Under the pieces are notes generated by a model. It saw only the letters and a program-made list of their open reading frames with translations, had not been told where the DNA came from and did no database searches. The position numbers and the translations under genes are program-made. From positions 9,599 to 73,598 of the forward strand of contig CAAFLE010000104.1 in NCBI GenBank assembly GCA_900763675.1: a DNA stretch of 64,000 nt, read 5' to 3'. How positions within the stretch are numbered: position 1 is the stretch's first letter; each line of letters starts with the position of its first letter. This document shows, piece by piece, positions 17,067-19,492 of this stretch. The DNA is from an uncultured Oscillospiraceae bacterium (lineage in GTDB: Bacteria; Bacillota; Clostridia; Oscillospirales; Oscillospiraceae).

Positions 17067-17773
17067 AAGTGAACATTCTGGGCGTGGCGTTCGACGCGCT
17101 CACGCTCGATGAAGCCGAGGAGCGCTGCGGCGAGCTGCTGCGCGGACAAAAGGGCGGCGCCGTCGTCACGGCAAACCCGGAGATCGTGCTGCGCTGCCGG
17201 GACGACGCGGTTTACGCTGCGGCGGTGAACGGCGCGGAGCTGGTCCTCGCGGACGGCGTCGGCGATCTGTATGCCGCCCGCATTCTCGGCACGCCCCTCC
17301 CGGAGCGCGTCGCGGGGGCGGACCTTGTCCCGCGGCTGCTGGCGGCTCTGGCGCGGCGCGGCGGCAGCGTCTTTCTCTACGGCGCACGCCCCGGCGTGGC
17401 GGAAAGAGCTGGGGGGCGGCTGCAAAACGCCTACCCCGGACTTCGTATCGCCGGAACGGAAAATGGGTATATTTCCGATGAAACGGCGCTTTTTGCCGCA
17501 CTGAACGCACAAAAGCCCGATCTTCTTCTGCTCGGTCTCGGCGCACCGCGGCAGGAGCTTTGGATGGCGGAGAACCGCCGGAGCATAAGCGCCGTGATGA
17601 TCGGCGTCGGCGGTCTGCTCGATGTGCTTGCCGGAGATGTTCCCCGCGCACCCGAACGCTGGCAGAAGCTGGGGCTGGAATGGCTTTACCGGCTTGTCCG
17701 CGAGCCGAAACGCATCCGGCGCATGATCCGCCTGCCGGAAATACTGCTCATCGCTCTGCGCGAGCGCAAATAA
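17063..17773 (+). CDS. WecB/TagA/CpsF-family glycosyltransferase
   Basis: Family-typical MKVNILGV.FD...., GAPRQELW and GVGG blocks. The ATGA overlap with cobB suggests translational coupling. Confidence 0.85.
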   Translation: MKVNILGVAFDALTLDEAEERCGELLRGQKGGAVVTANPEIVLRCRDDAVYAAAVNGAELVLADGVGDLYAARILGTPLPERVAGADLVPRLLAALARRGGSVFLYGARPGVAERAGGRLQNAYPGLRIAGTENGYISDETALFAALNAQKPDLLLLGLGAPRQELWMAENRRSISAVMIGVGGLLDVLAGDVPRAPERWQKLGLEWLYRLVREPKRIRRMIRLPEILLIALRERK

Positions 17774-17796
17774 AAAGGAGACCCCCGAAGGGGTCT
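17771..17796 (-). terminator. Intrinsic terminator for the minus-strand microprotein gene
   Basis: GAGACCCC-CGAA-GGGGTCTC hairpin. A T-run follows it on the minus strand (AAAAA on plus, 17771-17775). Confidence 0.65.
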
Positions 17797-17805
17797 CGCG
17801 GAGAA

Positions 17806-17952
17806 CTCAGCAGCCGCAGCCGCAGCCGTTGTTGTTTCCGCAGCCGCAGCCGTTGTTGCAGCCGCAGCCGCAGCCGCATCCGCCGCAGCCGAAGAGCAGG
17901 ATGAGAATGATGATGATCCAAAGGCAGCCGCCGTTATTATTTCCGCAGAACA
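17806..17952 (-). CDS. 48-aa Cys/Gly/Asn-rich tiny transmembrane protein (YjcZ-like architecture)
   Basis: Translation MFCGNNNGGCLWIIIILILLFGCGGCGCGCGCNNGCGCGNNNGCGCGC. GGAGAAAGGGA Shine-Dalgarno upstream and its own terminator downstream. Absent from the ORF track because it is under 60 aa. Confidence 0.6.
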
Positions 17953-18112
17953 TGGAATATTCCCTTTCTCCGTGCAAGACTTACGCACCGGCGGCGCACG
18001 GCGTCTCTGCCGGTCGGCGCTGTCGCTGGTAGGAGTTCCGGGGTTTTCGCCCCGTCTGCGGTATTCTATGCCCGGCAGCGCCGGGCGGTTACAACCCCCA
18101 AGGAGAGCATTT

Positions 18113-19492
18113 ATGTCAGACGAAGAAAAAATCGTTCCCGAAGCGGAAAATCCCGCGCCGGAGCCGCCTGCCGCGCCGGAGCGCCCGGCGAAGCCGGAAA
18201 AGAAGCCGGAGAAAACGCCGGGGAAAAAAACGGAGAAGCGACCGGCGCGTCCGGTCCGTCCGGCGCGTGCGGAAAAGAAGCCGGAGCCGAAAAAGGAAAA
18301 ACCGCAGCCACAGCCGGTACAAGCCGAGCTGGACCCGCGGGAGGCGGAGCGGGCGTATATGCCCATCCGTTCGCGGCGCGACGGGCGCATCGGCTGTATG
18401 GGCGGCATCATGTACGCGGCGTTCATCCTCTGCGCGAGCGTGCTGCTCGCCGTGTTCGGCTGGATGGCGGCGTCCGACGTGCTTGCGCTCAACAAGACCG
18501 CCGAGAGCGTGGAGATCACGCTGCCGGAAAGCGCCTTCACGCAGAAAACGGTGGATGTGACGGACGACGACGGCAACGTCACCGGAACAAAAACCGTCCG
18601 TGTGGCGGATATGAACACCGTGTCCGGCATATTGAAGGACTACGGTCTCATCAACTATAAGTGGCTCTTCCAGCTTTACTCGAAATTTTCCAATGCCGAA
18701 GCGCAGCTCAGCCCCGGAACGTATGCGCTCACGACGAATCTGGACTACCGTGCGCTCGTGAAGAAGATGCAGACGGGCGCGGACTCGCAGCTCCAGACGC
18801 TCGTCATGTTCCCCGAGGGGTACAATCTCGACCAGGTGTTTGCCAAGCTTGAGGAAAACGGCGTGTGCAGCAAGGACGATCTCTATACCGCCGCGGCGAA
18901 TGCCGAGTTCTCGTATGCCTTTTTGGAGGGCGTGGAGACAGGCGATCCGTACCGGCTCGAAGGCTTCCTTTTCCCGGATACGTACTATTTCTATCAGGGA
19001 ATGCAGGCGTCGAGCGCCATCAACAAGTTCCTCTCCAACCTCCATTACCGCATTACGGACGAGATGTGGCAGAAGGCGCAGGCGATGAACCTTACGTTCC
19101 GGCAGGTGATCACGGTCGCCTCGCTCATCGAACGCGAAGCGGCGAACGACGCCGAACGCGCCACGATCGCCTCGGTCATCTATAACCGTCTGAACGTCGG
19201 AATGCCGCTCCAGCTTGACTCCACGGTCGTGTACGCGCTGCGCGATACTGGCGAGACGACGATGTCCGTCGAGCTGATCCAGTCTACCGACAGCCCATAC
19301 AACACGTACCTCTATCAGGGGCTGCCGCCCGGACCGATCTGCAACCCCGGCATGAAGTCCATCGAAGCGGCGCTCAACCCGGAGCAGACAAACTATTACT
19401 ACTTTGCGCTGAACATGGAAACGAAGAGCATGGAGTTTTTCACCACGCTTGAGCAGCACGAAGCCTTTGTAGCGACGCAGGATTACGGATAA
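18113..19492 (+). CDS. mltG: Endolytic murein transglycosylase MltG (YceG-like) with a Lys/Pro/Glu-rich N-terminal extension
   Basis: One TM segment followed by a YceG domain (EGFLFPDTYYF, VITVASLIEREA, ASVIYNRL, LQLDSTV, YNTYLYQGLPPGPICNPG). AAGGAGAG precedes the ATG at 18113. Confidence 0.9.
   Translation: MSDEEKIVPEAENPAPEPPAAPERPAKPEKKPEKTPGKKTEKRPARPVRPARAEKKPEPKKEKPQPQPVQAELDPREAERAYMPIRSRRDGRIGCMGGIMYAAFILCASVLLAVFGWMAASDVLALNKTAESVEITLPESAFTQKTVDVTDDDGNVTGTKTVRVADMNTVSGILKDYGLINYKWLFQLYSKFSNAEAQLSPGTYALTTNLDYRALVKKMQTGADSQLQTLVMFPEGYNLDQVFAKLEENGVCSKDDLYTAAANAEFSYAFLEGVETGDPYRLEGFLFPDTYYFYQGMQASSAINKFLSNLHYRITDEMWQKAQAMNLTFRQVITVASLIEREAANDAERATIASVIYNRLNVGMPLQLDSTVVYALRDTGETTMSVELIQSTDSPYNTYLYQGLPPGPICNPGMKSIEAALNPEQTNYYYFALNMETKSMEFFTTLEQHEAFVATQDYG

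Follow-up and report, generated by a model that had tools for sequence, protein, structure and literature searches.

Gut Clostridia pass from one host to another as spores and, to our knowledge, the spore envelope of the Oscillospiraceae and their relatives is almost unstudied. Among cysteine-rich spore proteins, CotY and CotZ of B. subtilis and CdeC and CdeM of C. difficile are produced late in the mother cell and form Cys cross-links in the outer spore layers. A comparable chemistry occurs in the insect eggshell, where the Cys-Gly arms of chorion proteins harden the shell through disulfides. As for structured leader RNAs, Rfam contains several riboswitch classes that fold as H-type pseudoknots, namely preQ1, SAM-II, fluoride and guanidine-III. 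Very small proteins also take part in sporulation: SpoVM and CmpA are produced in the mother cell of B. subtilis (PMC10730256), and yjcZ of the same organism is a member of the sigma-K regulon (PMC517825). The consensus recognized by B. subtilis sigma-K consists of a -35 element, KCACM, and a -10 element, GCATANNNTA (PMC3416734), with a reported gap of 14-16 nt (PMC517825).

The window considered here, i.e. the whole 64,000-nt stretch of an uncultured Oscillospiraceae genome, contains on its minus strand a micro-ORF of 48 codons, which is a real and conserved gene, whose protein is under selection. The gene probably encodes a late mother-cell sporulation microprotein, which may serve as a thiol component of the spore envelope.

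The micro-ORF and its local signals

Reading of both strands gave the start and stop codons listed in Table 1, together with the other features of the locus. The encoded peptide contains 12 Cys, 15 Gly and 8 Asn. A preliminary description of this DNA had reported the 48-residue sequence and its Cys and Gly numbers exactly, but placed the ORF at 17806-17952, one base off. Its remarks on a strong Shine-Dalgarno sequence, on a terminator with a T-run belonging to the micro-ORF itself, on a central hydrophobic helix and on a 314-aa shadow ORF hiding the gene all agree with the present data. Indeed, in the AlphaFold2 prediction, for which the family alignment was supplied, residues 9-22 form a helix (mean pLDDT 77 over the block 11-20) and the tail is unstructured and of low confidence; the hydropathy of the peptide (11-residue mean) peaks at 3.6. 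A signal peptide is absent and charged residues are almost nil. The DNA coding for the tail repeats in tandem, with periods of 6 and 24 nt, so that the open frame by itself proves nothing.

Table 1. Positions of the features of the micro-ORF locus, numbered from the first nucleotide of the window.
Feature	Positions	Strand	Basis or remark
-35 element GTAACC of the sigma-K-type promoter	18087..18092	-	conserved block in the aligned family loci
-10 element GCATAGAATA of the sigma-K-type promoter	18062..18071	-	exact match to GCATANNNTA
5'-terminal hairpin of the putative leader, CGGGG / CCCCG	18039..18054	-	RNAfold; start site deduced
Candidate H-type pseudoknot	17970..18013	-	covariation
Pseudoknot stem 1	18013-18009 with 17992-17988	-	
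Pseudoknot stem 2	18001-17996 (loop CCGTGC) with 17975-17970 (GCACGG)	-	immediately 5' of the Shine-Dalgarno sequence
Shine-Dalgarno sequence AGAAAGGGA	17961..17969	-	direct sequence reading; 7 nt from the ATG
CDS, 48 codons and stop	17807..17953	-	Cys/Gly/Asn-rich peptide with a single hydrophobic helix
Start codon ATG	17953-17951	-	both strands read
Stop codon TGA	17809-17807	-	both strands read
Intrinsic terminator, 8-bp stem (6 G-C pairs) and T-run	17768..17797 (hairpin 17797-17778)	-	terminator scan
314-aa ORF overlapping the micro-ORF	17686-18630		different frame; antisense to mltG

The signals around the ORF are shared with its relatives: GGAGAAAGG or GGGGAAAGG is invariant as the Shine-Dalgarno sequence of the near ones, and also in the relatives the stop codon is trailed by a G+C-rich hairpin and a T-run. 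The genes for IMPDH, a SIR2 deacetylase and a WecG/TagA-type glycosyltransferase lie on the plus strand and converge with the micro-ORF, while the MltG/YceG gene begins at 18113 and is divergent from it; a YlmH-like gene is also found among the neighbours. Only 21 nt separate the -35 box of the micro-ORF from the start codon of mltG. According to the terminator scan, the terminator past the micro-ORF acts on the minus strand only; given this directionality and the position of the -35 box near the start of mltG, either an mltG promoter or read-through from wecG must run antisense across the micro-ORF and its leader. Transcriptional interference at 17773-18113 by such antisense transcription of mltG or wecG is therefore possible.

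A family of Cys/Gly/Asn-rich peptides

A word-indexed search of 5.8 billion proteins returned 114 matches at E<=1, and a profile search of 1.84 billion cluster representatives returned 135 of them at E<=0.001. At the genome level, six-frame searches detected the family in 14 of the 19 other genomes of the genus; within the order, 72 of 298 high-quality genomes were positive, corresponding to 53 of 151 genera and to about a quarter of the genomes. The preliminary description had proposed to look for homologous small ORFs in related genomes, and these are the ones that were found; conservation in both protein and genome searches indicates that the gene is beyond chance. A single-protein search for related loci was discarded, its sole result being an actinomycete artefact swamped by GC-repeat matches.

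Members of this uncurated family are 34-58 amino acids long and share the same plan: a head with Met-(Phe)-Cys and an Asn/Gly/Cys stretch leads to an invariant Trp, followed by 9-15 Ile/Leu/Val residues and then by a Cys/Gly/Asn tail, which ends with GCGC in 24 of 43 distinct members. In these 43 sequences five residues, G (23%), C (22%), N (17%), I (11%) and L (7.5%), account for 81% of the total, Lys is 0% and Arg 0.2%; on average each member has 9.8 Cys and 3.5 CxC motifs.

Selection on the protein is visible in the hydrophobic block, where the Trp codon never changes among loci and the between-loci differences at codon positions 1, 2 and 3 amount to 4845, 1589 and 5455, respectively; as the differences are fewest at position 2, the middle T specifying hydrophobic residues is kept. 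Within the genus changes are mostly synonymous, and all differences in tail length between members are in frame. A 6-nt deletion at 17858, corresponding to one Gly-Cys unit, was observed in contigs of this organism from two public runs, indicating that the number of tail repeats varies between strains, again in frame.

The family extends to further orders of the same class, where many genomes carry two tandem paralogues about 70-190 nt apart; the sigma-K-type box, where found, is usually located 5' of the upstream copy, which suggests that the two paralogues may share one two-gene transcript. In one member, of 76 aa, two full modules are fused head to tail, giving two helices and two Cys/Gly tails; its NCBI name is "chorion class high-cysteine HCB protein 13", and, apart from this spurious silkmoth name, the members appear in databases only as "hypothetical protein". 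No Pfam or NCBIfam model covers the family, and literature searches found no account of it. Gene callers usually miss the members or add a false N-terminal extension: public gene calls are often 20-40 residues too long at this end, because the G+C-rich leader is open in frame, and the true start is likely the conserved ATG right after the Shine-Dalgarno sequence.

Promoter and sporulation genes

Of 45 family loci, 43 have a CATAnnnT[AG] box in the 200 nt that precede the ATG, compared to 8% of background 200-nt windows. When 35 non-redundant loci were aligned on this -10 box, a second block, tGTAAC(c/a), was found at a fixed distance, with -35 position counts of G23/T24/A20/A32/C26/C26; the resulting family pattern is GTAAC(C/A), 15 nt, GCATAnnnT(A/G). 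Compared with the B. subtilis sigma-K consensus, the promoter of the window agrees in 4 of 5 positions at the -35 element (TAACC), has a gap of 15 nt and agrees in all 10 positions at the -10 element, so that the micro-ORF promoter has the -35 element, the gap and the -10 element of a sigma-K promoter. No sigma-70-type promoter was found for the micro-ORF. A position weight matrix, built without sequences from the genus itself, was used to scan the whole 2.0-Mb assembly, and the micro-ORF promoter ranked first with 22.7 bits; other matches to the matrix or to the regular expression lie at dapA, murA, a pdaB-like gene and spoIIR, as well as at unrelated genes, and only part of them concern sporulation. 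A different -35 element, TYATATTT, belongs to the sigma-E consensus; in the same genome spoIVA has a sigma-E-type TCATATTT, 13 nt, CATAGGAT (contig C61), so the two mother-cell promoter types can be told apart in this organism. The preliminary description had pointed to sporulation and to the region upstream of the ORF as a place for a sigma-E, sigma-K or sigma-G promoter: a sigma-K-type one is indeed located there, at 18062-18092, and the link with sporulation is supported by its conservation, yjcZ being likewise a sigma-K regulon member (PMC517825).

The genome encodes SpoIVA (672.7 bits), sigma-E (354.8 bits) and Spo0A. Two Spo0A-type genes, in fact, score above the cut-off of the Spo0A model in the 2.0-Mb genome, with 296.5 and 289 bits (C24:1583-2362 and C59:13930-14709). 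A search for sigK in the 80%-complete assembly did not find it, the best-scoring locus being sigE. In five relatives, four of the same genus and one of the same family, a second sigE/K-type gene was identified, scoring 261-281 bits (261-267 bits in the same-genus genomes, which are more complete than the present assembly), below the sigK cut-off of 298.65; thus, the sigK model may be too strict for this order. Searches for dpaA and yabG, which were candidate controls for sigma-K promoters within the genome, gave nothing above cut-off. Among the 298 genomes of the order, SpoIVA is present in 277 and the peptide family in 72, which makes their co-occurrence uninformative, and the occurrence of the family does not follow the capacity to sporulate. 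Sigma-K dependence of the micro-ORF is, on the promoter sequence, well supported, although we infer it rather than observe it, the search for sigK in this assembly having been negative.

The leader RNA

In the bacterial family of the host the distance between the -10 box and the ATG is 73-153 nt, while elsewhere it is mostly 31-66 nt. The leader hairpin and the pseudoknot (17954-18056, minus strand) are mostly confined to this bacterial family, the leaders of other lineages being short. The 5'-terminal hairpin occurs at the same place in relatives with different sequences (GATGG..CCATC, GATGAC..GTCATC and GATGGCG..CGCCATC).

The helices of the leader covary. In a covariance-model alignment of 10 loci 99.2% of the cells are paired and 6 of 12 pairs are changed on both sides; in a control in which the partners were slid by 1-3 columns, 27-45% of the cells were paired. 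Distant loci, which neither MAFFT nor the covariance model could align and which were therefore compared by anchoring on the helices, keep the architecture of the pseudoknot with unrelated sequences, such as CTTATCA/TGATAAG with CTGCGCG/CGCGCAG, and CCCGCC/GGCGGG with ACGCGC/GCGCGT. Moreover, several G-U pairs of the leader are compatible with the micro-ORF strand only. The folding energies of single sequences are not significant: the MFE z-score of this G+C-rich leader is -1.29, and the duplex energies were equalled or beaten in 0-48% of shuffles; it is thus the covariation that supports the pseudoknot. Rfam 15, searched over 17600-18300, gave no match to the leader even at E<=10, with all scores far below the gathering score. 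Hairpin and pseudoknot together represent a candidate new RNA motif. As a guess, the 5' hairpin might stabilise the mRNA and the pseudoknot might control or enhance ribosome binding.

Genomic context and hints of expression

In 26 of 47 loci the micro-ORF and mltG are divergent neighbours, a linkage that is lineage-bound; in many lineages the members are located away from mltG. Indeed, the contexts differ by lineage and include alaS-PAP2-mltG, ctsR-mcsAB-clpC/alr and S8 peptidase/ffh, so that a functional pairing with MltG is unsupported. The case in which the region is only the 5' UTR of mltG, considered in the preliminary description, can be rejected, since the micro-ORF lies on the strand opposite to mltG and many lineages have members at a distance from mltG; the absence of an adjacent modification enzyme, also noted there, holds for this locus and for every other context examined, where no maturase was found next to the micro-ORF or its relatives. 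No YcaO was found in this genome. A self-contained gene would be expected to have such varying contexts without maturases.

The organism is common in pig-gut metagenomes. RNA-labelled runs were examined as assembled Logan contigs, which are unstranded; two of them cover part of the micro-ORF at a depth of 2-3 and may be DNA. In a gut metatranscriptome, short contigs matching the repeat have a word depth of 86-157, compared with 2-9 for pieces of the neighbouring genes. The flanking (loose-end) sequences from two runs translate to helices of the family type (VWLILIVILI and LIIVFCCCGN), indicating that the high-depth contigs come from other members, and this is suggestive of high transcript levels of those members.

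Proposed role and alternative explanations

The favoured explanation would be as follows. The micro-ORF would be a monocistronic late-sporulation gene, on which sigma-K RNA polymerase would start at GTAACC-N15-GCATAGAATA, producing an mRNA of about 290 nt, in which the 48-codon ORF would be preceded by some 100 nt of structured leader and followed by a terminator of its own. The Ile/Leu core of 11 residues, flanked by Trp and by Cys/Gly, would bury the peptide in a membrane, probably the outer forespore or the mother-cell membrane, or in a hydrophobic spore layer. The lack of a signal peptide and the near absence of charges would favour such partitioning; the strictly apolar core of 11 residues is short for a bilayer span. 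The tail, with Cys-Gly-Cys units and Asn runs between them, would expose many close-set thiols, and its most likely role would be that of a small structural or redox part of the spore envelope, cross-linking by disulfides or by thiolate-metal bridges. The dependence on sigma-K, the insertion into a membrane, the place in the spore and the chemistry of the thiols are points that we infer.

The roles suggested in the preliminary description, namely metal binding, disulfide cross-linking and a modified-peptide precursor, are conjectural. Functions other than envelope cross-linking may be considered for a peptide of this kind. The abundance of CxC motifs in the tail, with few other residue types, might indicate a membrane-anchored metallothionein-like binder, whose task in the maturing spore would be to sequester or deliver Zn, Cu or some other metal and not to build structural cross-links. 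A promoter of the late mother-cell type agrees with this function, which is nevertheless unlikely: none of the contexts examined contains linked genes for metal handling, the searches gave neither a structural nor a family match, and the number and spacing of the cysteines vary freely by repeat gain and loss, which poorly fits a defined metal cluster. Small size, hydrophobicity, the same promoter and the divergent position next to mltG in over half of the loci would be explained also by a holin-like or lytic peptide, permeabilising the mother cell for spore release, perhaps together with MltG-like wall hydrolases. However, MltG is a housekeeping glycan-strand terminase, its linkage is limited to some lineages, with other members beside unrelated genes, and the peptide has neither a charged C-terminus nor a second helix, so a lytic function appears decidedly improbable.

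It is very unlikely that the peptide is the precursor of a modified peptide (RiPP), with a Cys-rich core converted to thiazoles or modified by a radical-SAM enzyme. The C-terminal Cys/Gly repeats superficially resemble heterocycle-forming cores, and one member has a weak match, at the level of chance (E 0.068), to a family of Cys-Xaa-Xaa-Xaa radical-SAM targets; however, the precursor idea is weakened by contexts that vary and never include a maturase and by the lack of YcaO in the genome, while the hydrophobic core is in the middle of the peptide and a conserved cleavable leader motif is missing. Hardly more credible is the absence of any functional protein, the ORF being either a by-product of the GGCTGC repeat in the wecG-mltG spacer or mltG 5' region, or a type I toxin-like element. 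In fact, the tail is a simple tandem repeat, open in several frames, and, the terminator being one-strand, transcription reading through from wecG in the direction of mltG would cross the micro-ORF in antisense; on the other hand, conservation concerns the head and the helix, which are not repetitive and have the codon-position signature of a coding sequence; start codon, Shine-Dalgarno sequence, terminator and promoter are all conserved, and members are found far from mltG. As for a type I toxin, the composition of the 43 distinct members, nearly devoid of Lys and Arg, does not provide the charged end of such peptides.

If the peptide is a thiol component of the spore envelope, it would represent a new building block of spores and a late-sporulation marker for metatranscriptomes. 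A broader and rather doubtful picture sees it as abundant in Clostridia spores, where, as a structural or redox component embedded in lipid, it would build a mesh of disulfides or thiolate-metal bonds at the outer forespore membrane and perhaps shield the spores of strict anaerobes from oxygen, with the leader pseudoknot setting translation, in one bacterial family, on a late-sporulation signal. Such a component would have been missed by standard proteomics, because it offers no Lys or Arg to trypsin and is very hydrophobic. In practical terms, the analysis yields a curated model of the family, its correct start codon, a logo of the sigma-K promoter in this order and a candidate leader RNA motif.

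Comparison with known systems

The leader resembles the pseudoknot riboswitches of Rfam in its topology, with a hairpin loop that pairs with a strand beside the Shine-Dalgarno sequence; unlike them, it matches no model, its 3' strand abuts the Shine-Dalgarno sequence instead of covering it, and no ligand is implied. The Cys-Gly repeat arms are a feature in common with the silkmoth chorion HCB protein 13, but the bacterial peptides have a hydrophobic helix and lack the chorion domain, with no Pfam match; the shared name rests on low-complexity similarity only, and its use in the literature was found for Bombyx only.

Among spore proteins, CotY/CotZ and CdeC/CdeM share with the micro-ORF product the late mother-cell origin, which for the peptide is predicted, and the many cysteines, and the same cross-linking role is here proposed for the peptide; those proteins, however, are folded and far larger and lack a hydrophobic helix, and no search revealed a sequence relation to cysteine-rich coat or exosporium proteins. 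SpoVM and CmpA are, as proposed for the peptide, tiny mother-cell products, and they act at the forespore surface; SpoVM differs in being a 26-aa amphipathic, sigma-E-dependent helix without cysteines, with which no sequence similarity was found.

The preliminary description had compared the layout of the peptide to the YjcZ family, and this holds for the size below 60 aa, the Gly/Asn/Cys-rich head and the single helix at residues 9-22, but not for family membership as judged by the available HMM models (PF09680, YjcZ_2, and TIGR01732, tiny_TM_bacill). These two models do not match the peptide at E<=10, match none of 103 family members at E<=1 and find nothing in six frames of this genome; PF09680 is also absent from 60 other genomes of a sample of the phylum. 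In a protein atlas the nearest named cluster is YjcZ, with a weak score of 0.58. The peptide family differs from YjcZ in its invariant Trp and in the addition of a long Cys-Gly-Asn repeat tail. With the YjcZ proteins of Bacilli it shares a length of less than 60 aa, a Gly-rich head, one Ile/Leu/Val-rich helix and a standalone gene, and the sigma-K-type promoters of the family have their counterpart in the place of yjcZ in the sigma-K regulon (PMC517825); by this analogy of plan and putative regulation, YjcZ is the nearest named analogue of the micro-ORF product.
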